From assembly GCA_039630415.1 (NCBI GenBank), contig JBCNVB010000018.1, positions 35,233 to 99,232 on the forward strand: DNA of 64,000 bases, read 5' to 3'. The translations under genes and the position numbers were made by a program. The stretch's first letter is position 1. Every line of letters begins with the position of its first letter. The DNA comes from a bacterium (lineage in GTDB: Bacteria; DRYD01). Positions 558 through 35,584 of this stretch are shown in pieces. Below the pieces are notes generated by a model. That model saw nothing but the letters and a program-made list of their open reading frames with translations, was not told the DNA's origin and did not search any database.

Positions 558-1865
558 TTAAGATCTAGAGACTTTAACTCCATCAAGGATATGTTCTAGC
601 TCATTTTCTTCTAGATAGTACTCCACAAAAACAGTAGGCTTGTTGATCTTCATTAGTTTAGTTATATCGAATGGGGTAGCTATGATAACTGCATCAGCTG
701 GAATTTGATTTATGATGTACTCTAACTCCCTTATCTGTTCTGGGAAATATCCCACAGCAGGTAGTACCTCTCTTACTTGAGAGTATTTTTCGTAAGCCTG
801 TTTTATAGAGCCCACAGCATATGCATATGGACTTATTATTTGGCAGTTATATTTTTTAGCAACGATATATCCCGCTCCATACGACATTTCTCCATGCGTT
901 AAAGTAGGTCCATCTTCCACAACTACAACCTTCTTATTTTGTATAACTTCTGGATTATCTACCTTTACTGGTGATTTTGCTTTTATTATTTTGGCACCAG
1001 GATTAATTTTACTTATGTTCTGTTCAAGAATAGCTACATTTTGTGGATCAGCAGTATCTACTTTATTTATGATAGCTATGTTGCACATTCTAGCATTTAC
1101 CTCGCCAGGAAAATAGGTTAATTCATGATTTGGGCGATGAGGATCAAAAACAGTTATCCATAGTGTAGGATAGAAAAATGGGAAATCATTGTTTCCTCCA
1201 TCCCAAACTATAACATCAGCCTCTTTTTCAGCTTCTTGCAAAATCTTTTCATAATCTACCCCAGCATAAACTATATGTCCTTCCTTTATATGAGGCAAAT
1301 ACTCCTCTCCCTCTTCTATCGTGCAATTATTTTTTATTATGTCTTCCGGAGTTTCAAATCTTTGTACTATCTGTTTAGACAGGTCACCATAAGGCATAGG
1401 GTGTCTTACTACAACTACCTTGTAACCTTTTTGTTTAAGTATTTTAGCAACTTTTCTAGAAGTTTGACTCTTTCCACATCCGGTTCTAACAGCTGTTACA
1501 GCAACCACTGGCTTTTGAGAGTAAAGGAAAGTATCTTTAGGAGAAAGTAACCTAAAACTAGCACCGGCTTTCAGCGAAATACTCGCTAAATTCATTACAT
1601 GTACATGACTAACATCTGAGTATGAAAAGACAACTTCATCAACAGAGTATTGCTTTATTAACTTCTCCAACTTTTCTTCAGGATAGATAGGTATTCCATC
1701 AGGATAGTTTGGTCCCGCTAGACAAGATGGATACGTACGATTCTCTATAGAAGGTATCTGGGTTGCAGTAAATGCAACAACTTCATAGTCTGGATTATTC
1801 CTGTAGTAAACGTTGAAGTTATGAAAATCTCTTCCACCGGCGCCTAGTATTATCACCTTTTTCAT
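558..1865 (-). CDS. COG2403-family P-loop NTPase (cyclic 2,3-diphosphoglycerate synthetase-like predicted GTPase)
   Basis: 435 aa. Walker A-like motif VAVTAVRTGCGKSQTS. The overall N-terminal MKKVIILGAGGRDFH Rossmann-like start matches the cpgS/COG2403 architecture. This is the last gene of the minus-strand sulfur cluster. Confidence 0.45.
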   Translation of the reverse strand: MKKVIILGAGGRDFHNFNVYYRNNPDYEVVAFTATQIPSIENRTYPSCLAGPNYPDGIPIYPEEKLEKLIKQYSVDEVVFSYSDVSHVHVMNLASISLKAGASFRLLSPKDTFLYSQKPVVAVTAVRTGCGKSQTSRKVAKILKQKGYKVVVVRHPMPYGDLSKQIVQRFETPEDIIKNNCTIEEGEEYLPHIKEGHIVYAGVDYEKILQEAEKEADVIVWDGGNNDFPFFYPTLWITVFDPHRPNHELTYFPGEVNARMCNIAIINKVDTADPQNVAILEQNISKINPGAKIIKAKSPVKVDNPEVIQNKKVVVVEDGPTLTHGEMSYGAGYIVAKKYNCQIISPYAYAVGSIKQAYEKYSQVREVLPAVGYFPEQIRELEYIINQIPADAVIIATPFDITKLMKINKPTVFVEYYLEENELEHILDGVKVSRS

Positions 1866-1903: not shown

Positions 1904-2434
1904 TTATAACCTGTTTTTTTCAAAAACATAGAAAAGAACACCTGCTGCAATCGTTAAAAGGAGAATTATTAGGAAGGGGGAAGTATTAGCAACTTGGTAA
2001 ATAGTTAATTTTCCGAAGTTACCCAAATCAATCAGTGGTTTAACGTAAGGATATAGATTAATGAAAAGAGCCGATCCTATAATCATTCCTATTACGGCAA
2101 AGATAGCGTGGATTCTACCTTCAGCTATAGCAGCAACTGCTGTTCCTGGACAGTATCCAGTAAGTGCCCAACCCAAACCAAACAATATCCCTCCAAAAAC
2201 TATTGCACCCAATGCTAAAGGCTTAAGATGCAAACTTATCAATCCAAGTTGATTCAATAAGTTAATACCAATAGCTCCAACTATAGCGGCAGAAAACATA
2301 AACTTAATAATTGTCATATCTTTAAAAAGCACCGCAGCTACCTGCTTTTCATACCTTATTACGCCCGCTAAAGTTAGTATAGTACCAAAAATTATCCCTG
2401 CAACCAATCCCACAAGCATTTCCATACCTATCAC
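1904..2434 (-). CDS. YeeE/YedE family sulfur-compound transporter component
   Basis: 176 aa polytopic membrane protein with a GYCPGTAVAA (GxCxG) motif typical of YeeE/YedE (TsuA-like) half-transporters. Paired with the adjacent gene. Confidence 0.6.
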   Translation of the reverse strand: MIGMEMLVGLVAGIIFGTILTLAGVIRYEKQVAAVLFKDMTIIKFMFSAAIVGAIGINLLNQLGLISLHLKPLALGAIVFGGILFGLGWALTGYCPGTAVAAIAEGRIHAIFAVIGMIIGSALFINLYPYVKPLIDLGNFGKLTIYQVANTSPFLIILLLTIAAGVLFYVFEKNRL

Positions 2435-2967
2435 CTCCTGTAAATAATGTTGGCAAATAAAATAGCAGAAGAAAAGAAAACAATAACAGCAATAAGTGAT
2501 CCAAGAGAAAGTTGCATCATCCCACTTAATCCATGCCCACTAGGACAACCATCTGCTAACCTTGCTCCAAAACCAACAAATATACCTCCAAGTAAGGCTA
2601 AAATAGCTCTTAGTGTAAAATTACTACCAAATTTATCCATAAATATTGGAGGCACTAGCTCTAATTTAAAACTCCTATTCAATAACGATGTTATCAGTGC
2701 TCCTATAAATATTCCAAGAACAAACATCATTTGCCAATCTACTTTTAAGTTCAGCTTATTAAAATACTCATTGCTTATGTTTGGTGTAATAGTTTTTTGT
2801 ATAGCTGCAGCTATTTTTGCGAAAGTTGTAGATGTACCGAAAAATTTAGTATCTCCAATTAGCATTGTCGTAAGGTAAACAACGGCTATGGCCAATAAGC
2901 CAACTAGTACTCCTCCAATATATGGATTAAGCCTTGTTTCTTTCATATTATTCACCTCCAACATCAT
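2431..2967 (-). CDS. YeeE/YedE family sulfur-compound transporter component
   Basis: 178 aa membrane protein with a DGCPSGHG motif. Overlaps the downstream partner by 4 bp, suggesting translational coupling. Confidence 0.6.
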   Translation of the reverse strand: MMLEVNNMKETRLNPYIGGVLVGLLAIAVVYLTTMLIGDTKFFGTSTTFAKIAAAIQKTITPNISNEYFNKLNLKVDWQMMFVLGIFIGALITSLLNRSFKLELVPPIFMDKFGSNFTLRAILALLGGIFVGFGARLADGCPSGHGLSGMMQLSLGSLIAVIVFFSSAILFANIIYRR

Positions 2968-3278
2968 AAATATTTTTCAATTATTTTTGATACCGATGAT
3001 ATTTTTTGTTTTAGATGATTTAGAGCAAACATTTCAGAATCGAGATTATCTGAAAGATTAACACAGCAGTTATTTTCAATTATTTTAGCAAGTATATTGG
3101 TAAATGTTTTATGTATAGCTTGTCTTACGGATGCTAATTGATGAACAACTAACTCACAACTTTCTTCCCTTTCAATCATGTTTATTATTGCTCTTATTTG
3201 TCCTTCTATTTTGAGTAATCTAGAAACTAACTCTCTTTTGTCAGCTTTATCCATTATTTTTAGTTCACTTCCTGTCAT
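2964..3278 (-). CDS. CsoR/RcnR/CstR-family metal- or persulfide-sensing transcriptional repressor
   Basis: 104 aa protein of DUF156-like size. It has conserved Cys...His...Cys positions (ESCELVVHQLASVRQAIH...NNCC) and an all-helical repeat pattern. It is embedded in the sulfur-transfer operon, like CstR. Confidence 0.6.
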   Translation of the reverse strand: MTGSELKIMDKADKRELVSRLLKIEGQIRAIINMIEREESCELVVHQLASVRQAIHKTFTNILAKIIENNCCVNLSDNLDSEMFALNHLKQKISSVSKIIEKYL

Positions 3279-3299
3279 TGTTACTCGCCTCCCCTAGAT

Positions 3300-4415
3300 T
3301 CATAGTTTAACAAAGACTCCTAAGAAAAGGATGACAATATAAGCTACAATTCCGACAAAAGTTGCTCCAATAAATCCCACAATAAAAGGTTTTATCCCCA
3401 TTCCTTTAAACACATGAAATTCCGTATTAAGTCCCACAGCAGCCATAGCTGTACCTAAAAGATATTTTGATCCCCAAACCTCTCCTAGAGTGTTTATTAG
3501 GTTTTTCCAACTATTATAGTCAAATACTCCTAAGGCTAAATATCCATTAGCCAAATTCATATCACCTATAGATCTTACCAAAGCCATAGCAATAAACCCA
3601 AGGATAAACATAGGTATTATCTTGAATAAGTTAACTTTACCCTGTTCAGAAGAAGAACTTCTTAAGTAAAGAAAGGCTAGTAAAGGCACTACAATTGCAA
3701 GAAAGAGATTTCTAGTTAATTTGGTAACGGTAGCTGTTTTGAAAACAGTATCGTCATTGTAAACTTCTTTGTATGTTAAAGCAGCACCAACTACTTGAGA
3801 AGTTTCATGAATAGCAGTACCTATAAATAAACCTATCTGCTCGGAGGTAGTAAATAAAAATTTAGCCAGATATGGATACAAAAACATAGCGAGTAAACCA
3901 AAAATTGTCACGTTTGCAACTGAGTACGCTATTTCCTTATTTTCTGCCTTTATAGCAGGTGAAACAGAAACTATAGCAGTAACTCCACATATACTCGTAC
4001 CTGCTGCTATCAATGTACCTAACTTCTCAGGTAACCTCATCATCTTATTTACCAAATAAATGAATATCAACGCAGAAAATATTACTATGAGCACTATAGG
4101 TATTCCCCAAGCACCTAACTTGAATACTTCACTTACACTCAGCTTTATACCAACCAATATAATTCCAAGCCGGAGAATCTTAGTTAGAGAAAATTCTATT
4201 CCCTTTTTAAATATATCTGGTAGCTTAATAGTATTTGCCACGATTATTCCAAGAATAATAGCAACAAGTACTGAAGATATGGGACTGCTTTTTCCTGTTG
4301 GATCTATTCCTTGGATTTTTAGAATCATTTTTCCTAAGTGATCAGCTATTGGTATAGACAACAGCATAAGTATCACAGACAAAATTACCCCTGGTATAAT
4401 ACTCATACTAATCAT
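3300..4415 (-). CDS. YeiH/UPF0324-family putative sulfate/sulfur-anion exporter
   Basis: 371 aa polytopic membrane protein. Its length and N-terminal region match the UPF0324 (YeiH) family. Confidence 0.45.
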   Translation of the reverse strand: MISMSIIPGVILSVILMLLSIPIADHLGKMILKIQGIDPTGKSSPISSVLVAIILGIIVANTIKLPDIFKKGIEFSLTKILRLGIILVGIKLSVSEVFKLGAWGIPIVLIVIFSALIFIYLVNKMMRLPEKLGTLIAAGTSICGVTAIVSVSPAIKAENKEIAYSVANVTIFGLLAMFLYPYLAKFLFTTSEQIGLFIGTAIHETSQVVGAALTYKEVYNDDTVFKTATVTKLTRNLFLAIVVPLLAFLYLRSSSSEQGKVNLFKIIPMFILGFIAMALVRSIGDMNLANGYLALGVFDYNSWKNLINTLGEVWGSKYLLGTAMAAVGLNTEFHVFKGMGIKPFIVGFIGATFVGIVAYIVILFLGVFVKL

Positions 4416-4436
4416 CCCCCTTGTTGTAGGGTAAGT

Positions 4437-5015
4437 TTATATGAATATGGTCATAGCAGAGTTTAGTGCATGGGATAAGAAGTAAGCAACCCCTCCAGAT
4501 TCCACTCCTTCAATTAATTCCTCATCTTGTATTCCTAGTACATCTTTTGACATTTCACAAGCTATGAACTTGACTCCTATCTCCTTGGCCATTTTCATTA
4601 ATTCTTCTAAAGTGCTAACATTTTTTTCTCTCATCATATTTCTAAGCATAGTAGCACCAATCCCAAAGAAATTCATTTTAGATACAGGTAACTGTGAAGA
4701 GGAGGAGGGGTTAAGAAGAGAGAACATAACTTGGTGCCATTTTTTGTTGTTTAATTTTCGCTTAGCTTTTATAGCGTTTATCCCCCAGAATGTAAAGAAT
4801 ACACTTACTTGTTTACCAAAAGCGGCAGCACCAGTTGCTATTATCATTGAAGCCAGCACTCTATCCAAATCACCTGAAAAAACTACTATGGCAACCTTAT
4901 CTTTCTGTTCAATAATGCTAGATAGTTCTGATCTGAGTTGATTTATTTGCTGTTGTAAAGTATCTATTTGACTCTTTAAATCCTGTATGCTATCTTTTGT
5001 AATTTCTGGAGTCAT
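4437..5015 (-). CDS. DsrE/DsrF/TusD-like sulfur-relay protein
   Basis: 192 aa. N-terminal coiled coil followed by a DsrE-like fold (VAIVVFSGDLDRVLASMIIATGAAAFG ... KFIACEMS with an active-site-like Cys). Confidence 0.5.
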   Translation of the reverse strand: MTPEITKDSIQDLKSQIDTLQQQINQLRSELSSIIEQKDKVAIVVFSGDLDRVLASMIIATGAAAFGKQVSVFFTFWGINAIKAKRKLNNKKWHQVMFSLLNPSSSSQLPVSKMNFFGIGATMLRNMMREKNVSTLEELMKMAKEIGVKFIACEMSKDVLGIQDEELIEGVESGGVAYFLSHALNSAMTIFI

Positions 5016-5027
5016 AAAGATTCCCTC

Positions 5028-5288
5028 CTACTTTTTCTTAATGTAGTGGACATAGATTTCTTTTCCATCCTGATCTTTTTCTGTTGCTTGATGTACAAGC
5101 TCTATGGATTTATCTACGTTAGCCCATCCTTGGAAATCTTTTAAAGATCCTTTGTCAGTAGCTATAACTTTGATTACCATTCCACTTGAAACTTTATTAA
5201 CTTCTTGTTTAGCTTTGACAAGGGGCATAGGACAAGAAAGCCCCTTGACGTCTAGCAATAAATTATAGCTCAAGTTTCCTTGACTCAT
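5028..5288 (-). CDS. tusA: TusA-like sulfurtransferase
   Basis: 86 aa. LDVKGLSCPMPLVKAK contains the conserved CPxP motif of the TusA/SirA family. Confidence 0.7.
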   Translation of the reverse strand: MSQGNLSYNLLLDVKGLSCPMPLVKAKQEVNKVSSGMVIKVIATDKGSLKDFQGWANVDKSIELVHQATEKDQDGKEIYVHYIKKK

Positions 5289-5310
5289 CGAAATACACCT
5301 CCTTTAGATT

Positions 5311-6510
5311 TTATGATTTATAAGCCTGGGAAAGAGCACATACGTTTTTACCAGTTTCTAACTCTTCTGCTCTTTCCTCGTCAACTTCTATGAGCTCTAT
5401 GTTGACTCTCTTGATTTCAACGTATTCAGGTGGGAAGGTTGGTAAGCTAGATAGCATGTATTTTACAAATTCTTCTTTTCCTTTAGTTATTAACAAGTTT
5501 AGTGCTTCATTCGATTTTTTGAGATTTCCAAGTGTTTCAATAAATAATCCTTGTTCGTTAGCTTCGGATATTTTACTAAAGTGTGCAGGTAAAACAATTG
5601 TATCATCTGGAAGTTTTGTAAGTCTTGAAAGTGATTCAGCTTGCATTGGAGCCCAGGTTTCCCCTCTACCACCAAGGTCAGGTCTTGCAACGGATACGAT
5701 GAATATCGTATCTCCTGTAAACAGGTATTTATCGTTTACCAAGTACACCAAGTTACCTAAAGTATGCCCTGGTACATGAATTACTTTGATTTTTGCAGAT
5801 CCCAGTTCAAGTACATCCCCTTCTTTTAGGAAAGAGAATTGAACTTTACCAATCATAACATCAACTGGATGGATAGCATCATATGGATGGAAGTAGTAAG
5901 GCACGTTTAGCATTCTAGAAAGTTTTGGTCCACCACTTATGTGGTCAGCATGAATGTGAGTGTCTAGGATAAACTTTATTTTGGCTCCTTTTTGGTTTAT
6001 GAAGTCTATGTATTTTTCGACGTGTCTTAATGGATCTATTATGGTTGCTTCGTTGTTAGATATGATTACCCAACTGAGATCTCCTCTAGAAATTCTGCTT
6101 ATTTGGTATATGGATAGTTCTGGTGATTCTATAACGGTTTTGTAGTCGTAGTAGTTAAACCAGTTTTGCATACCTCCTTCGAGATTGTAGGCTTTGTATC
6201 CTAGTTTTGTGAGGTTATTGACAAAGAGTTGAGAGGTTCCACCTTTGTCACATACGACATAAAGTTCTTCATTCTTAGAGAACATGTTTGGGAAGTTGTT
6301 TTGGATGTATTTAGTCATATCTGCGTCTATATCTCCTGTTTCGAGCATTTGTGCATAGTAGATATTGAATATTGAGAAGTTTTGTTTACCTTCTATTTTG
6401 TGGGTTTTGAATTTTTCTGGGCTTCTAAGGTCTATTAGAGTTATTTTTTGGTCTTTTTGCATTTTTTCGTATAGTTCTTGAGGGGTTATTGTTTGTGTCA
6501 TGTTATTCAC
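5311..6510 (-). CDS. rhodanese domain / metallo-beta-lactamase fusion (persulfide dioxygenase-sulfurtransferase-like)
   Basis: 399 aa. The N-terminal rhodanese has the catalytic-Cys region VVCDKGGTSQ. The C-terminal MBL fold has HIHADHISGG (HxHxDH). The architecture resembles CstB/ETHE1-rhodanese fusions. Confidence 0.65.
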   Translation of the reverse strand: MNNMTQTITPQELYEKMQKDQKITLIDLRSPEKFKTHKIEGKQNFSIFNIYYAQMLETGDIDADMTKYIQNNFPNMFSKNEELYVVCDKGGTSQLFVNNLTKLGYKAYNLEGGMQNWFNYYDYKTVIESPELSIYQISRISRGDLSWVIISNNEATIIDPLRHVEKYIDFINQKGAKIKFILDTHIHADHISGGPKLSRMLNVPYYFHPYDAIHPVDVMIGKVQFSFLKEGDVLELGSAKIKVIHVPGHTLGNLVYLVNDKYLFTGDTIFIVSVARPDLGGRGETWAPMQAESLSRLTKLPDDTIVLPAHFSKISEANEQGLFIETLGNLKKSNEALNLLITKGKEEFVKYMLSSLPTFPPEYVEIKRVNIELIEVDEERAEELETGKNVCALSQAYKS

Positions 6511-6521
6511 CTCCTGTTTTC

Positions 6522-6588
6522 TATACCCCTTACCCTTATACCCATACCCCTATACCCTTTACCCTTCCCACTATAATATTATACCCAA
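6522..6588. promoter_or_regulatory. C-rich near-heptameric direct repeat array (TACCC(T/C)T, 7 copies) in the promoter region of the sulfur operon
   Basis: TACCC occurs at 6524, 6531, 6539, 6545, 6553, 6560 and 6582 with 6-8 nt spacing. This is a highly atypical composition for this roughly 30% GC genome. It lies directly upstream of the first gene of the minus-strand sulfur operon. Confidence 0.4.
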
Positions 6589-6663
6589 AACTAGAACATC
6601 CTCCTACCTAAAATAACCTATAAACATTGATTTTTGTCAATAAAAATATCGAAAACCTAAATC

Positions 6664-6927
6664 TTATCCAGCTTGCTTTTTAACAACAAAATCAACATGA
6701 ATTTTTTTGTTTATCTTAGCACCATAAGCCATAACAATAGCCTTAATAGAAGTCAATAACATCTTGTTCCTGTTTAAAAAATTAAAATCGTTCTTGGAAA
6801 CATAAGCTTTTAAATAAACATTCTTAGAATCTTCTTTCCCAGTTACATGAAATTCCGAAAGAAGTAAAGACAACAAGTAACTGAGTATTTGCTCCGCATT
6901 TGATACTTTACTTAGCATATCTATCAC
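6664..6927 (-). CDS. KH-domain RNA-binding protein (YlqC/UPF0109-like)
   Basis: 87 aa. The C-terminal [20 protein letters not shown] resembles the KH core plus the 'RVxVDIV' tail of the UPF0109 family. Confidence 0.4.
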
Positions 6928-8186
6928 CTTCCGACGTACACCGGATAAGCAGAGGATATTTCTTTAACTTTATCTGAAACGTACTCCTTTTTCGAAGGAT
7001 CCTTGAGTATTGTAGAAATTAGTTTGGCTACTTCGATCACCTCGTTTTCTTTGAACCCTCTGGTGGTTATTGATGGAGTTCCTATCCTTATTCCACTAGT
7101 TATTCTCGGGGGTTGGGGATCATATGGAATTACGTTTTTATTTACATATATCCCCACCTGATTTAGAAGTTCTTCAGCTTCTTTACCTGTAAGACCAGTA
7201 TTTCTTAAGTCAACTAAAAACATATGACAATCAGTTCCTTGAGAAACTATCCTAAAACCTTCCTCTTGTAAAGTTTTTGCAAATACTTTAGCATTAGAAA
7301 CAACTTGTTTTTGATACTCTACAAATTCTGGAGTTTGAGCTAATTTAAAAGCGACAGCTTTAGCAGCTATCACATGCATTAAGGGTCCACCCTGAACACC
7401 AGGAAAAACCGATTTATCTATATCTTTTGAGTACTCTTTTTTGCAGAGTATAATTCCTCCCCTGGGTCCTCTAAGAGTTTTGTGGGTAGTAGAAGTTACA
7501 AAATCTGCATAAGGTACAGGAGAAGGATAAACCCCAGCTGCAATTAACCCCGAATAATGAGCCATATCAAATAAAAAATAACAGCTCACTTCTTTAGCTA
7601 TTTCAGCAAAGATTTTTGAATCTATAACTCTTGAGTAACTTGAGGCACCTGCTAGGATCATTTTTGGCCTGTATTTTAAAGCCAAGTCCCTCACCTGATC
7701 ATAATCTATTAACTCATCTTTTCTCGAAACACCATAATGTATCACATTGTAGATTTGTCCCGAGAAATTAACAGGGCTACCATGGGTTAAATGTCCTCCA
7801 CAGCTCAAGTCCATTGTAAGAATAGTATCCCCTGGTTTGAGAAAGGCAAAAAATACTGCCATATTGGCCTGCGCTCCTGAATGAGGCTGAACATTAGCAT
7901 GCTCAGCTTTATATAAACTCTTCAATCTTTCAATCGCTATGCTTTCTATTTGATCTATGTATTGACAACCAGAATAATATCTTTTACCAGGATAACCCTC
8001 TGCATATTTATTTGAAAGAGCTGTTCCCATTGCTTGTAGTACAGCTTTAAAAGCATAGTTTTCCGAAGCAATTAAATTTATTCCCTCAGATTGTCTTTTA
8101 GTTTCTTTTTCGATCAAACTAAATATTTCTGGATCTATTTCTTGAAGGTCAGAATTTATTTCAGAAAATCTTATCAAGCAAAACAC
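6924..8186 (-). CDS. glyA: serine hydroxymethyltransferase
   Basis: 420 aa. Contains [12 protein letters not shown] and the PLP-lysine region [12 protein letters not shown]. Full-length SHMT. Confidence 0.95.
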
Positions 8187-13693: not shown

Positions 13694-15283
13694 TTATATA
13701 ACTATTTTGGAAGAGAATTTTATTCTTCTAGAATTTGCGAATCTGTGAGCTTCATCTCTAAGTTTTCTTATAAAGTTTAGGATATTTTCTTCAAGTTGTA
13801 TTTGTTTGATTTCATGATCGTATATGTATATTTTATCATCTGGTTTGGCTATGGACATGAATTTAATGTTTAGCCGTGTTTTAGAGTCATTATAAGCTTT
13901 TATAGCGTAGGATAGTTGATTTATTCCCCCATCGACTATTATTAATTGAGGAGTTATATCTTTAAGTAAAGAGCTAGTAAATCTTCTATAAACTAGCTCG
14001 TAAACGTTCATTAAATCGTCGTGAGCATGACTTAGCTTGAATATTCTATACTTTGATTTATTTAGTTTACCTTTTTCGGAAACTACCAGAGAACCGTAAA
14101 CATTATCTCCATAAAAATGACTGACATCTATAGCCTCTATTCTGTATATTGCATCTATTTTGAGCAACTTACACAGTTTTTCTAAGATTAGGTATACGTT
14201 ATTTTGTTGATAGTACTGGATTTTTTGGTTACATACTTTTTCGAGATATAAGAAATTTTCGTCATTAGTACTAGAAAGGCATATATTTTGTAATTTTTCA
14301 GATATTTCGTCTTGATAATTTTTTAAGTAGTTAGTGATAAATTCTTTTAGAGATTCTAGATATTGTGGTTGTATGAATATTGGGTTGGATTTGATATTAA
14401 GTATGGTGTTAAAAAGTATCTGTTCTGGGGATAATTCTTCAGCGTTTTCTATTTCTAGGATTTTCAGATTAGTTGGGGCAGTAAATACACCTAAAATAGT
14501 TACATATTCATCTTTACAAAGATACAGATAAACAGCTTGATTTGATTCTAGGACTTTATGTTTGTAAGATAGTAGGGTTCTGAGTTTGTTTCTATAGATT
14601 ATTGCTTTTTCGTACTCAAGTTTTTCGGAAAGTTCTTTTATTTTCTGTTCGTATTCCTGTATTAGTTGATCTATAGTTTTTTTTTGCATTTTTATGATTT
14701 CGAGGGATTTATTGAAGTTTTGGTTGTATTGGTTTTTGGATATCATGTTTTGACATGGTCCTGAGCAGTAACCTAGATGATAATATAAACATAGCGGTGG
14801 TCTTATTTTTCTGAAATCGTACTGACATTGTCTAATACCAAATATAGTCCCCATCATTTTGAACAATTCTTTGTAATTTATGCTTGTAATAAATGGTCCG
14901 AAGATTTCTTTCGTATAACTATCAAAATCAGAAGAAAGTGAAAAATAGGGGTATCCATCTTTGTCTATTACAACTATGTACTTCAGCGGATTTTTATACT
15001 TGTACTGAATGTTATATTTAGGTTTTTTTTCGTATATAAGTTTTGATTCTAATATTTGAGCTTCTAGTTCAGAGTTTGTTATTAGGTACTCCAGATTATC
15101 CGAATTTTCCACTATTTCTTTAGTTTTAGCGTCTTTTACGGTTAGATAACTTCTTATTCTATTTTTTAAATTTTTGGCTTTACCAATGTATATGATAATA
15201 TCTTTCTTCTTGAAAAAGTACACTCCAGGTAGTGAAGGTATTTCTTTGAGATTGATCTTTATCACATTTATATCTTTCAACAT
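13694..15283 (-). CDS. uvrC: excinuclease ABC subunit C
   Basis: 529 aa. N-terminal GIY-YIG nuclease domain (LPSLPGVYFFKKKDIIIYIGKAKNLKNRIRSY), a UvrBC-interaction region, and a C-terminal RNase H-like endonuclease region. Confidence 0.8.
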   Translation of the reverse strand: MLKDINVIKINLKEIPSLPGVYFFKKKDIIIYIGKAKNLKNRIRSYLTVKDAKTKEIVENSDNLEYLITNSELEAQILESKLIYEKKPKYNIQYKYKNPLKYIVVIDKDGYPYFSLSSDFDSYTKEIFGPFITSINYKELFKMMGTIFGIRQCQYDFRKIRPPLCLYYHLGYCSGPCQNMISKNQYNQNFNKSLEIIKMQKKTIDQLIQEYEQKIKELSEKLEYEKAIIYRNKLRTLLSYKHKVLESNQAVYLYLCKDEYVTILGVFTAPTNLKILEIENAEELSPEQILFNTILNIKSNPIFIQPQYLESLKEFITNYLKNYQDEISEKLQNICLSSTNDENFLYLEKVCNQKIQYYQQNNVYLILEKLCKLLKIDAIYRIEAIDVSHFYGDNVYGSLVVSEKGKLNKSKYRIFKLSHAHDDLMNVYELVYRRFTSSLLKDITPQLIIVDGGINQLSYAIKAYNDSKTRLNIKFMSIAKPDDKIYIYDHEIKQIQLEENILNFIRKLRDEAHRFANSRRIKFSSKIVI

Positions 15284-20385: not shown

Positions 20386-21681
20386 ATGGAAAAAGAACTA
20401 CTTAACCTCCTAGTAGAAGAACTAGGTCAAATAGCATATGACCTATGCTTTAATATAAGTACCTCAAACATAGATAAAAATGAAAAAAGAATGACAATCA
20501 TAACACCAGATAAATCTGTAAAAGAGTGGATAGAAAAAAAATACTCACCACTGTTAAAGGAATTAATAGAAAAATACTATAATGAAATCGATTGGAATAT
20601 AGAGGTTAAACTCAAAGAAGGAGAGCAAGAAAATATAGAAAGTTCTCTAGATATTCTTAATCCTTTTTTTACTTTTGATAACTTCGTAGTGGGTAATAGT
20701 AATCAGTTTGCGTATGCAGCGAGTTTAGCAGTAGCACAAAAACCAGGTAAAGCATACAACCCACTGTTTATATATGGTTCTACAGGATTAGGTAAAACCC
20801 ATCTCCTTCACGCTATCGGTAACTTCATCTTTAAAAGAAAGTTATCCAAAAAAATAATCTATATTACATCTGAAAAATTCATAAACGATCTAGTTAACTC
20901 TATTAAAGAAAAAAAATTAGAAGATTTTAGAAACAAATATAGAAGAGCTGAAATACTTTTAATAGATGATGTTCAGTTCATAAGTGGAAAGGAAAGAACT
21001 CAAGAAGAACTGTTTCACACCTTTAATGAACTTTACTTAGAAAACAAACAAATAGTTCTGACTAGTGATAGACCACCAAGAGATTTAGAAGGGATAGAAG
21101 ATAGGTTAAAATCTAGATTTCAGTCTGGATTAATAGCCGATGTACAGCTGCCAGATTTTGAAACCCGAAAAGCTATAATAAAGAAAAAACTGGAAAAATA
21201 CGACCTAATTTTTGATGAGCAAGCAGTAGATTTTCTAGCTCAAAAATTTAGAAATAACGTCAGGGAAATTGAAGGAGCTATTATTAAAATTGTAGCATTT
21301 ATTAATCTCAACAAAATCAATATAGAAAAAGTTAGAGTGGAACACTTACAAGAAATCCTAAAAGATCTTAGTCATGAAGATACAAAAATCAACCCAGATA
21401 ATGTTATTGAGGTTGTCACTGAATACTTTAATATTACGCGAGAAGAAATCTTTTCCAATTCTAGGGAAAAGAAAATAGTATATCCAAGACAGGTATTAAC
21501 TTATCTTCTTAGAGACACCTTGGGTATGTCTTTTAAGAGTATAGGTAATTACCTTGGTAAGGATCATACAACCATAATGCATTCATATGAGAAAATCAAT
21601 GTTTTACTAGCAAGTCCAAAGGTTTATAAGGATATCTCTAATATAAGAGAGAAACTTTACGAGAAATACCATCATCATTAA
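20386..21681 (+). CDS. dnaA: chromosomal replication initiator protein DnaA
   Basis: 431 aa. Contains the AAA+ Walker A motif GSTGLGKTHLLHAIGN and the box VII region. The C-terminal DNA-binding domain includes YPRQVLTYLLRDTLGMSFKSIGNYLGKDHTTIMHS. Confidence 0.9.
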   Translation: MEKELLNLLVEELGQIAYDLCFNISTSNIDKNEKRMTIITPDKSVKEWIEKKYSPLLKELIEKYYNEIDWNIEVKLKEGEQENIESSLDILNPFFTFDNFVVGNSNQFAYAASLAVAQKPGKAYNPLFIYGSTGLGKTHLLHAIGNFIFKRKLSKKIIYITSEKFINDLVNSIKEKKLEDFRNKYRRAEILLIDDVQFISGKERTQEELFHTFNELYLENKQIVLTSDRPPRDLEGIEDRLKSRFQSGLIADVQLPDFETRKAIIKKKLEKYDLIFDEQAVDFLAQKFRNNVREIEGAIIKIVAFINLNKINIEKVRVEHLQEILKDLSHEDTKINPDNVIEVVTEYFNITREEIFSNSREKKIVYPRQVLTYLLRDTLGMSFKSIGNYLGKDHTTIMHSYEKINVLLASPKVYKDISNIREKLYEKYHHH

Positions 21682-34216: not shown

Positions 34217-35584
34217 CTATCCTTCTCTATTGTACTTATCACTTATTCTAACTATGTCTTTTTCTGATAGGATTTCACCTAATTGAATTTCTAGAATTTC
34301 CATACTCTCATCTGAATCATTTATAGCTTTATGAATAGTTCCTTTGGGAATGTATATGAAATCTCCTCTCTTTATTGTTCTTTGTTGATTATTTATGATT
34401 ATTCTTCCATATCCCTTGATAACGACCCAGTATTCATCCCTATGTTGATGATACTGAAGAGAAATTTCTTGATGAGGATAGATTGTTATATTTTTTATTC
34501 TGTAGTTTTGTTCATTATTTTCTATTTCCCTATAGAATCCCCAAGGTCTAAAATCAAACGTATTAAAATCTTTTTGTTCTTGTGAAATTTGATCAAGTAA
34601 GTAAGATATGTTTTTTGATTTTCCCTTTTTGGATATCAACTGAAAATCTTTAGTATCTACAATTACGACGTCCTTTACATTTATTAAGCAATACTTTTTA
34701 GGTGATTTCACTTCAAATTCATCCAAAATTATGTTAGCTTTAGAGTTTACTGCTATAAGTTTCTCTATATCATGATTGGATATTTTTGTTATTTCTTCAA
34801 AACTGCCTAGATCTGACCAACCAAAAGTAGATTTCAATACATACAGATTTTTTGTTTTTTGGCTGTATAGATAGTCTATAGATATCGATGGAAAATAATT
34901 AGACTTATCAATCAATGATTTCAAATTATTGAATTCCTTTAGGTGTGAATTAACCAAGAAAAAATCTTCCAAAAAGAAAGAAGATTTAAAAGCATATATT
35001 CCTGAGTTCCACAAGTAACTGCCAGTTTTCAGATAGTACCTGGCTTTTGATTTATTAGGTTTTTCCACAAATTTGTGAACTTGGAATAGATCTTCATCTA
35101 CCATTTCGCCTTTCTTTATGTAACCGTACTCGGTAGATGGAAAGCTAGGTTTAACACCAATTATGAAAGTTTTATCGAATTTTTGCATAAAACTAACTAA
35201 TTTGGCTATTGAATTATCGAACTCCTGGTGATTTAAAATATAATGGTCACTTGGGAAAAATACAAAGGAACTTTCTTTTACACCAAACTTTTCAAACGAT
35301 TGATATATCCCAAGTAGTATAGCATAGGCAGTATTCTTAGGTTCTTCCTCCAAAATTATATCCTGCCCTATATCCGGAATGTCTCGTAGTACCAAATATA
35401 GATGTCTTTTATTTGCAACCACAAGTATTTTGTCAAATATACCTAATGTTTTTATCCTTTGGTAAGTTAACTCAAGTAGACTTTTACCATCAAATATTTT
35501 TACAAATTGTTTTGGATAATTAGTTCGAGATAAAGGAAATAATCTTTTGCCAAAACCTCCACAAAGTATAACCGCTATTTTCAT
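34217..35584 (-). CDS. manC: mannose-1-phosphate guanylyltransferase / mannose-6-phosphate isomerase (bifunctional, cupin C-terminus)
   Basis: N-terminal nucleotidyltransferase motif ILCGGFGKRLFPLS. C-terminal cupin QYHQHRDEYWVVIKGYGRI. Confidence 0.7.
   Translation of the reverse strand: MKIAVILCGGFGKRLFPLSRTNYPKQFVKIFDGKSLLELTYQRIKTLGIFDKILVVANKRHLYLVLRDIPDIGQDIILEEEPKNTAYAILLGIYQSFEKFGVKESSFVFFPSDHYILNHQEFDNSIAKLVSFMQKFDKTFIIGVKPSFPSTEYGYIKKGEMVDEDLFQVHKFVEKPNKSKARYYLKTGSYLWNSGIYAFKSSFFLEDFFLVNSHLKEFNNLKSLIDKSNYFPSISIDYLYSQKTKNLYVLKSTFGWSDLGSFEEITKISNHDIEKLIAVNSKANIILDEFEVKSPKKYCLINVKDVVIVDTKDFQLISKKGKSKNISYLLDQISQEQKDFNTFDFRPWGFYREIENNEQNYRIKNITIYPHQEISLQYHQHRDEYWVVIKGYGRIIINNQQRTIKRGDFIYIPKGTIHKAINDSDESMEILEIQLGEILSEKDIVRISDKYNREG

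Follow-up and report, generated by a model that had tools for sequence, protein, structure and literature searches.

A rearranged relative of the cst and yrk operons, with a rhodanese–persulfide-dioxygenase-like fusion, in a bacterial contig related to Candidatus Calescibacterium

Introduction

The cst operon of Staphylococcus aureus (cstR-cstA-cstB-sqr, with tauE) and the yrkD-E-F-H-I-J operon of Bacillus belong to functionally equivalent gene clusters that respond to sulfane sulfur (PMC9918477). Here, we analyzed a stretch of 64,000 nucleotides of bacterial DNA (positions 35,233 to 99,232 of contig JBCNVB010000018.1, assembly GCA_039630415.1; hereafter the window, to which all coordinates refer), which carries a seven-gene operon that is a rearranged relative of both. 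As in cst and yrk, the operon combines a two-Cys repressor of the CsoR family lacking the Cu-ligand His, rhodanese, TusA and DsrE carriers, a fusion of a rhodanese with a persulfide dioxygenase (PDO)-like domain of the CstB type and a putative sulfite/thiosulfate exporter, while relatives of the window locus use the same ATACCC-N-GGGGTAT operator as cst.

The differences are nonetheless substantial. The carriers are separate small proteins here, in contrast to the fused CstA, and a single rhodanese precedes the PDO-like metallo-β-lactamase (MBL) domain, which is the reverse of the order in CstB, YrkH and the PDO-rhodanese fusions in general, where one or two rhodaneses follow the PDO. The fusion, termed Rho-PDO below, is devoid of the C201-G202 loop of CstB and features an invariant C-terminal Cys388. 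The exporter is YeiH, of the PSE family, instead of TauE, two PmpAB-like half-size membrane proteins are added, no sqr is found nearby, the regulator gene lies inside the operon and, in the Calescibacterium lineage, the operator appears as a G-rich direct-repeat array rather than a palindrome.

Other described systems share parts of this set. The same order of an N-terminal rhodanese and a PDO-like MBL domain is found in Rho-PDO fusions of Bacillota and of Desulfobulbales/cable bacteria; in the available part of that report they are catalogued, with no mention of the operon context (TusA, DsrE2, CstR-like, YeiH, PmpAB) or of the C-terminal Cys (PMC13047784). Thermus TTHA1953 is a thiol-dependent regulator of sulfur oxidation and the Sox pathway (PMC10318464). 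It resembles the regulator described here in being a thiol-based two-Cys protein, and the ATACC..GGTAT(GGTA) half-sites of its operator recur in the array upstream of the operon, but it keeps a His four residues before its second Cys, has a spacing of 29 rather than 30 between both Cys, and controls distant sox genes instead of an adjacent sulfurtransferase/PDO operon. Serratia PmpA/PmpB and the TsuA-TsuB (YeeE-YeeD) proteins of Escherichia coli and Spirochaeta represent the YeeE/YedE family and have, as here, a TusA-family gene nearby; the Serratia Pmp proteins are of ~130 amino acids versus ~170 here, whereas TsuA is a single protein of ~330-350 amino acids with nine helices and three conserved Cys, which is split over two genes in the window. 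Finally, in Xylella and Agrobacterium, the redox/sulfide-responsive repressor BigR controls the PDO-rhodanese fusion Blh along with YeeE/YedE-like membrane proteins. BigR is of the ArsR type rather than the CsoR type and Blh has the PDO before the rhodanese, unlike Rho-PDO, whose NCBIfam match to Blh reaches 62 bits, far below the equivalog cut-off of 625.

Results

Gene content and layout of the operon

An earlier note on this DNA, written by a model from the sequence alone, had proposed a CstR-like sulfur-trafficking operon of seven consecutive minus-strand genes spanning 1904-6510. All seven open reading frames (ORFs) were found at these positions, separated by intergenic gaps of 12-38 nt or else overlapping over short stretches, and a terminator scan detected no terminator-like site between the genes. 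The ORFs were scored against Pfam, using gathering scores, and against NCBIfam, using equivalog cut-offs. Each has a Pfam match far above the gathering score, which confirms the gene families proposed, and the motifs quoted with them were all verified, namely CPMP in TusA, GCPSG and GYCPG in the permease halves, CDKGGTS in the rhodanese loop and HIHADH in the MBL domain. The NCBIfam scores stayed below the equivalog cut-offs for Blh, GloB, TusA, DsrE2, TsuA and YeiH, an agreement at family level only, and we hence regard the operon proteins as relatives of the named proteins and not as their orthologues.

The proposed gene set thus stands, with a shorter span at its upstream end. Based on the ribosome-binding site (RBS) and on orthologues, Rho-PDO starts at ATG 6501, the GTG at 6510 being located within the RBS AGGAGGTG. 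A database protein of 396 amino acids (P0001) is 100% identical to Rho-PDO read from ATG 6501, and an exact-sequence lookup with the 399-residue ORF version returned nothing because the real start is ATG 6501. On the same grounds, the starts of YeiH, the PmpA-like and the PmpB-like proteins were shifted to probable positions 4406, 2946 and 2425, respectively.

A conserved module across several phyla

A scan of one genome per species yielded 328 relatives of Rho-PDO, and the best 80 loci (designated by L numbers) were examined. Neighboring genes were called with phmmer by comparing the window proteins to six-frame ORFs and, many contigs being short, the counts are lower bounds. Rho-PDO is accompanied by TusA in at least 52 of the 80 loci, by DsrE2 in at least 50, by a CsoR-like regulator in at least 37 and by YeiH in at least 22, while PmpB-like and PmpA-like genes are next to it in at least 13 and 12 loci, respectively. 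All seven genes also occur together in one Bipolaricaulota, one Gemmatimonadales and one unclassified metagenome-assembled genome (MAG). The core of the module is therefore made of Rho-PDO, TusA, DsrE2 and the regulator, with YeiH and PmpAB as frequent accessories. The combination of Rho-PDO, TusA, DsrE2 and a CstR-like regulator is common to Calescibacteriota, Bipolaricaulota, Armatimonadota, Acidobacteriota, Gemmatimonadota, Bacillota and others.

A rhodanese fused to a CstB-like MBL domain

In Pfam, Rho-PDO matches Rhodanese (54.6 bits, residues 9-118 of the ORF) and Lactamase_B (68.2 bits, residues 146-310). Homologues of ~400 amino acids were aligned in two sets, of 34 (A1) and 90 (A2) sequences. 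The rhodanese C84, in a six-residue loop (CDKGGTS), is invariant in the 34 homologues and at least 90% conserved in the 90, while the MBL residues H182, H184, D186, H187, H246, D264 and H307 are invariant in both sets, as is C388, which belongs to a C-terminal ELExGxNxCA motif. Two further motifs, HPYDxIHPxD (205-214) and ARPDLGG (272-278), are largely invariant among the homologues. The earlier note had recommended checking the rhodanese Cys and the MBL His/Asp ligands and comparing the architecture with CstB and ETHE1: the rhodanese Cys and all seven MBL residues are in place, and both sequence and predicted fold make the MBL domain PDO-like, with CstB as the closest relative.

By sequence, Rho-PDO best matches two PDB entries, 3tp9 (an MBL-rhodanese protein of Alicyclobacillus) and 3r2u (CstB of S. 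aureus), with E ~1e-20; these alignments extend past the MBL core to residue 370 and include a common RPDL motif after the Asp ligand. The AlphaFold2 (AF2) model has a mean predicted local distance difference test score (pLDDT) of 93 and a predicted template modeling score (pTM) of 0.91. When it was submitted to Foldseek, the top 21 hits were all persulfide dioxygenases, headed by 3r2u (1e-21), and glyoxalase II came only afterwards; the PDO neighbors comprise CstB, 3tp9, BpPRF, ETHE1 (plant, human and Myxococcus), Beggiatoa PDO, PA2915 and SdoA. Sequence and model thus indicate an MBL domain of CstB-like persulfide dioxygenase type, from which an Fe- and O2-dependent activity may be inferred. 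The model is less confident in the tail surrounding C388, with values of ~73 for residues 381-390 and below 50 for residues 393-396, and a search with the C-terminal 97 residues, aimed at the architectures in which the Cys388 tail occurs, returned eight short fragments only.

A regulator with the CstR fingerprint

The regulator, of 104 amino acids, scores 60.7 bits against PF02583 (Trns_repr_metal, cut-off 22.8), and its PDB matches are, in this order, TTHA1953 (6ahx, E 4e-6), InrS and the streptococcal CstR structures 7mq1-3. Its Cys residues are C41 and C71 (plus C72). There is no His four residues before the second Cys, the position of the CsoR His being taken by I66/I67, and no N-terminal metal ligand. 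At the W-X-Y-Z positions that discriminate the family, x-C-x-C is the fingerprint of the persulfide-sensing CstR, whereas x-C-H-C is that of the Cu-sensing CsoR (Fakhoury et al., PMC8643695). The assignment to a CsoR/CstR-family repressor is thus substantiated by both PF02583 and the x-C-x-C fingerprint. The earlier note had held that lack of a C-H-C triad would speak against its reading; the triad is literally missing, there being no His at Y, but this is the very signature of CstR (PMC8643695) and so counts in favor. In four Rho-PDO operons, the regulator has retained the first Cys only (L005, 3856-4167; L006, 2665-2964; L016; L028) and is therefore incapable of canonical Cys-Cys' cross-link sensing.

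Operators in relatives and a G-rich repeat array in the window

In Bipolaricaulota and other relatives, two operators were recognized at the promoter of the Rho-PDO gene, ATACCCTAGGGGGTAT between TTGACA and TATAAT, and ATACCCTACGGGGTAT in the 5' untranslated region (5'UTR). Both are almost identical to the cst operator of Streptococcus mitis, ATACCCTTATGGGGTAT (PMC8643695), and the TTHA1953 consensus TACTATACCTTGGTATGGTA is related as well. Within 250 nt upstream, 15 of the 37 loci with an adjacent regulator gene carry the palindrome ATACC-N6-GGTAT, versus 3 of the 43 loci without one (Fisher p = 4e-4), an enrichment that ties the regulator to the operon.

In the window, the upstream repeat region that the earlier note had singled out for regulator-binding assays is real, with five overlapping GGGTA-N1-4-GGGTA at 6524-6564 for 0.15 expected. 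The array sits between a TATAAT hexamer (6583-6578) and the RBS (6515-6508), shows periods of 7, 14 and 21 in Tandem Repeats Finder and is conserved in L001-L004. Its (A)TA-GGGG-TAT units resemble the 'single G-tract' sites of the CsoR/RcnR family, a lead rather than a test. The array moreover forms a G-quadruplex motif of the type (G3+N1-7)x4, at 6526-6569 on the sense strand, and both strands of the 64 kb were otherwise free of such motifs. A consensus promoter scan missed the promoter upstream of 6501, and the -10 box was set by eye and by comparison with relatives: TATAAT or TATACT is found at the equivalent site in L001, L002 and L004. In the window, the -35 is weak or unclear. We rejected a riboswitch or attenuator, as positions 6300-7000 contain no known RNA family of Rfam and the 5'UTR has no Watson-Crick structure (minimum free energy of -0.8 kcal/mol, z = +1.6).

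Two other sequence elements were noted. An inverted repeat, ATTGACAAAAATCAAT at 6626-6641 (-), directly follows the stop of an 87-residue ORF described below and precedes the -10-like box by ~45 nt. It has been conserved in L001, L002 and L004 (as ATTGATAAAAATCAAT) and in L006 (as ATTGATAAAAATCAT), and could be a -35 region or the site of another regulator. A second exact ATAGGGGTAT, isolated and single, lies at 14945-14954 (+) inside the uvrC-like coding region (13694-15283, -), and was dismissed as an operator and taken as a chance occurrence, since the window contains 13 one-mismatch matches against 5.6 expected.

Sulfur carriers and membrane proteins

The TusA-family protein scores 57 bits against PF01206 and 33.5 bits against the NCBIfam TusA equivalog (cut-off 78), and its Cys19 in CPMP is invariant in 53 orthologues. 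The DsrE2-like protein matches PF13686 (171 bits) and PDB 3pnx (E 1.4e-29), with C153 in ACEMS invariant in 51 orthologues; its NCBIfam DsrE2 score is 94.3 bits for an equivalog cut-off of 210. It displays one hydrophobic core segment and no transmembrane segments, unlike the membrane-anchored DsrE2A, and is predicted to be soluble. It starts with a ~38-residue extension (residues 1-38, window 4902-5015) that is heptad-like, coiled-coil-looking and conserved across several phyla, is missing from 3pnx, its closest solved homologue, and may be an oligomerization or docking element.

YeiH scores 239.6 bits against PF03601 (Cons_hypoth698, cut-off 24.5) and 155 bits against TIGR00698, below the subfamily cut-off of 232.6. 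It is the most conserved module protein across phyla, the Calescibacterium sequence being 60-65% identical to those of Bipolaricaulota, Armatimonadota and Gemmatimonadota (L008, L011, L020, L036, L053), versus 43-55% for Rho-PDO, which suggests that the module is strongly constrained or has spread laterally. Thiosulfate induces yeiH more strongly (+526-fold) than any other gene in Hyphomicrobium denitrificans, and sulfite export has been proposed as the role of its product (PMC11582611).

The two half-size proteins, PmpA-like and PmpB-like, score 94.9 and 70.7 bits, respectively, against Sulf_transp (PF04143) and correspond to the C-terminal (2431-2967) and N-terminal (1904-2434) halves of the YeeE/YedE profile. 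C141 of the PmpA-like protein is invariant in 13 sequences and C95 of the PmpB-like protein in 12. The Dahl group has described exactly such a layout, an adjacent pair of half-size YeeE/YedE proteins with one conserved Cys each, for PmpA/PmpB (PMC11582611). Their NCBIfam scores for TsuA (59 and 48 bits) remain well below the cut-off of 400, so that, of the 'tsuAB-type' permeases announced in the earlier note, the family membership holds while full-length TsuA gives way to halves of the PmpA/PmpB type. A selenium-related function (YedE/YedF), raised by weak NCBIfam matches, was discarded as unsupported by any selD or selenoprotein context.

Host and genomic neighborhood

The closest homologues of Rho-PDO, with 82-85% identity, belong to Candidatus Calescibacterium MAGs. 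This lineage has been described as an aerobic chemoorganoheterotroph of non-sulfidic, oxygenated springs at ~80 C, and was absent from one sulfidic spring, possibly through sulfide toxicity (PMC4791363, PMC11696919). The anaerobic thermophile envisaged by the earlier note as a host is therefore not supported and, the lineage being reported as aerobic, an O2-dependent dioxygenase is plausible. In one Calescamantes population, hdr, dsr, tqo and sqr have been reported absent (PMC4791363).

Downstream of the operon, the COG2403-like gene lies where the earlier note had placed it and is probably co-transcribed with the operon. However, it is adjacent to Rho-PDO in at least 5 of the 80 loci, all from the Calescibacterium lineage, and we rejected it as a component of the module owing to this restricted distribution. 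Its product contains a TGCGKS motif and sub-threshold Pfam matches to CbiA and CobW, along with a distant similarity to cyclic 2,3-diphosphoglycerate synthetase (PDB 9sxb, E 8e-5 over ~110 residues). The features of the locus are compiled in Table 1.

Table 1. Features of the operon and its flanks, in window coordinates.
Feature	Position	Strand	Basis
Rho-PDO (rhodanese-N/MBL-C fusion)	5311..6501 (ORF to 6510)	-	Pfam, PDB sequence, alignments, AF2, Foldseek
TusA-family sulfur carrier	5028..5288	-	PF01206; Cys19 in CPMP
Soluble DsrE2-like (DrsE_2) sulfur carrier, as predicted	4437..5015	-	PF13686; C153 in ACEMS
YeiH / PSE-family membrane protein, candidate sulfite/thiosulfate/sulfate exporter	3300..4415, probable start 4406	-	PF03601
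CsoR-family repressor, CstR type	2964..3278	-	PF02583; C41, C71(/C72), no His at Y
PmpA-like half-size YeeE/YedE	2431..2967, probable start 2946	-	PF04143 positions 172-307; C141 in GCPSGHG
PmpB-like half-size YeeE/YedE	1904..2434, probable start 2425	-	PF04143 positions 13-150; C95 in GYCPGT
COG2403-like P-loop protein, 435-aa ORF	558..1865	-	Weak Pfam; PDB 9sxb
G-rich direct-repeat array, candidate operator	6521..6575	-	GGGTA[T][A], ~7-nt spacing, 21-bp super-period
TATAAT -10-like hexamer	6578..6583	-	Read directly; same place in relatives

The G+C content of the operon equals that of its flanks. Genes sampled at 12-34 kb are housekeeping according to Pfam, which identified nusA, uvrC, dnaA, pheT and tuf, and glyA, RNase PH-like and ClpC/ClpB-like genes were recognized by eye around the operon. 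Further sampled housekeeping neighbors encode an M50/RseP-type peptidase, a proline dehydrogenase and an ATP synthase alpha/beta-family subunit. The dnaA gene (20386-21681, +; Bac_DnaA, 240 bits) is ~14 kb from the operon and, given its presence, the window is probably close to the chromosomal replication origin. At the other end, a gene downstream of COG2403 (1-586, -) runs past the window edge and carries a motif resembling a histidine-kinase H-box, SHELRTPLTSIKGF.

An ORF of 87 amino acids (6664-6927, -), with a 4-nt overlap at the glyA stop, lies upstream of the operon; neither Pfam nor NCBIfam gave a match for it. In L001, L002 and L004, it is likewise flanked immediately by glyA on one side and the Rho-PDO gene on the other, and in L006 it immediately precedes the Rho-PDO gene on a contig that ends before any glyA; its homologues in these four loci were matched with E-values of 1e-25 to 1e-30. 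It was not found beside the module in other phyla.

Discussion

The proposal of a CstR-like sulfur-trafficking operon withstands scrutiny on several lines that were observed directly, namely the gene content with its domains, the conserved catalytic residues, the sequence and fold matches that place the MBL domain among PDOs, the synteny and the cst-type operators of relatives. We consider it likely that the operon is cst-like and autoregulated, has sulfane sulfur as its inducer, and serves to clear or oxidize persulfides and polysulfides in an aerobic hyperthermophile. The inducer, the direction of transport, the order of sulfur transfer, the products, the requirement for O2 and the binding of the repressor to the array are what we infer in the following scheme. 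When reactive sulfur is low, a CstR-type tetramer would occupy the G-rich array immediately after the -10 box and block transcription. Upon build-up of persulfides or polysulfides, Cys41 and Cys71 of neighboring protomers would become joined by di-, tri- or tetrasulfide bridges, the cross-linked repressor would leave the DNA and the entire operon would be transcribed, regulator gene included. Thiosulfate or zero-valent sulfur would cross the membrane by way of the PmpA/PmpB-like pair, and sulfane sulfur would be held as protein persulfides on the rhodanese Cys84, TusA Cys19 and DsrE2-like Cys153. The MBL domain, as an Fe(II) dioxygenase-type enzyme, would convert a persulfide and O2 into sulfite, or perhaps thiosulfate instead when acting together with the rhodanese persulfide, and the oxidized product would be exported by YeiH.

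Several observations weigh against this interpretation. On the regulatory side, the ATACC-N6-GGTAT palindrome is absent upstream of the operon in the window and in its six closest relatives (L001-L006), where only same-orientation GGGTA repeats are found, so that the array is a candidate operator whose recognition by the CstR-type repressor is extrapolated. The Cys-Cys spacing of the regulator is 30 (C41-C71), as in Bipolaricaulota orthologues, and not the canonical 29, and the second Cys is missing in the L005, L006, L016 and L028 orthologues and is displaced by seven residues toward the N-terminus in those of Acidobacteriota. On the enzymatic side, the CstB segment PGHGAGSPCGK, which harbors the C201-G202 loop, aligns with the Cys-free PAHFSKISEANEQG in Rho-PDO, and a 2026 preprint presents this loop as the self-S-sulfonation site of CstB, required for catalysis (PMC12934615). 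The top NCBIfam match of the MBL domain is to glyoxalase II, with no equivalog cut-off reached, and Rho-PDO fusions are explicitly described as uncharacterized (PMC13047784). As for the host, the part of the window that was surveyed yielded no sulfide:quinone oxidoreductase (SQR), and a published Calescamantes population reportedly lacks sulfur-oxidation genes (PMC4791363).

Other interpretations differ in what the carriers and the MBL domain would serve. The same proteins could support sulfur assimilation, with PmpAB importing thiosulfate or S0, the rhodanese, TusA and DsrE2 feeding the synthesis of cysteine or cofactors, and the MBL domain converting or disposing of the sulfonate part. BpPRF, a PDO-rhodanese fusion found among the Foldseek neighbors, reportedly has a proposed assimilatory role, TusA is a general sulfur hub, and the weak NCBIfam matches to TsuA point the same way, as does the fact that YeeE/TsuA with a TusA-like partner constitutes a thiosulfate uptake system (PMC11073785). 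We nevertheless judge assimilation unlikely: a CstR-type repressor and the cst-type operators of relatives fit an excess of sulfane sulfur rather than starvation, the exporter YeiH (22 of 80 loci) is a commoner partner than the importer-like PmpAB (12-13 of 80), and no cysteine-synthesis genes are adjacent. Highly unlikely is a dissimilatory role in which the carriers would pass sulfane sulfur to an energy-conserving sHdr or Dsr complex encoded elsewhere. The rhodanese-TusA-DsrE2 trio is indeed the classical relay of sulfur oxidizers (PMC11094781; PMC9918477), and TTHA1953, to which the regulator is closest among solved structures, has the Sox pathway under its control (PMC10318464). Yet the neighborhood is devoid of sHdr, Dsr and Sox genes, the Calescamantes population mentioned above was reported to have neither hdr, dsr, tqo nor sqr (PMC4791363), the DsrE2-like protein is predicted to be soluble and scores below the DsrE2 equivalog cut-off, and a dioxygenase-type enzyme, wasteful of the electrons, is fused to the relay and conserved along with it.

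A third possibility retains the sulfur substrates and dispenses with O2, the MBL domain being a hydrolase (a glyoxalase-II-like thioesterase or a persulfide or thiosulfonate hydrolase) in a pathway that handles polysulfide or thiosulfate without a dioxygenase, which the anaerobic setting of the earlier note would call for. Its top NCBIfam match, to hydroxyacylglutathione hydrolase (88.8 bits, under the cut-off), and a complete set of the seven residues that make up a binuclear metal site of the glyoxalase II type are compatible with this view, and the Bipolaricaulota and Thermoanaerobaculia represented among the 80 loci are believed to be largely anaerobic. The nearest neighbors in both sequence and structure are however PDOs and not glyoxalase II, and a PDO-type A/G-R-P/T-D-L/F motif stands in place of the glyoxalase II pattern used for comparison. 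Homologues of Rho-PDO also occur in strict anaerobes, but those of the anaerobes have a degenerate HXQADY motif (PMC13047784), whereas the window protein has the full HxHxDH motif of the Bacillota type, which is that of aerobes and facultative anaerobes. Together with the aerobic character of the host lineage (PMC4791363, PMC11696919), this makes an O2-independent function quite unlikely. Lastly, the PF02583 membership of the regulator, its weak NCBIfam matches to RicR, FrmR and RcnR, and a G-tract operator style typical of the CsoR/RcnR family (PMC10318464) might evoke an operon for copper or other metal stress under a true metal-sensing repressor. With no His at Y, no N-terminal W ligand, no CopA, CopZ or RcnA gene and partner genes that are all sulfur-handling, this reading is extremely improbable and was rejected for want of the His and of metal-efflux genes.

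Returning to the cst-like operon, two of its departures from cst can be combined in a tentative and rather doubtful extension. C388 may replace the role of the missing Cys-Gly loop of CstB, and its flexible tail might act as a built-in swinging-arm persulfide carrier moving between the rhodanese, TusA/DsrE2 and the Fe site. Jointly, the repressor of the Calescibacterium lineage might have exchanged a palindromic operator for tandem G-rich repeats in one orientation, giving a distinct mode of control; a G-quadruplex formed by the array, on the sense strand or in the 5'UTR, could contribute a second level of control, based on structure, at ~80 C.

Beyond this locus, the analysis provides a better label for genes that are now called 'MBL fold metallo-hydrolase', and indicates that the presence of the operon is not a sign of anaerobic sulfur metabolism. 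The operon also supplies a concrete case of operator remodeling in the CsoR family. Rho-PDO is a natural comparison for the self-S-sulfonation of CstB, having the same predicted fold and a rhodanese partner while the Cys-Gly loop is gone and another Cys is invariant; should the swinging-arm hypothesis be true, it would represent a distinct, self-contained solution to persulfide oxidation. Among the candidate routes for the disposal of reactive sulfane sulfur in non-sulfur bacteria, the module is probably one of the most widespread.

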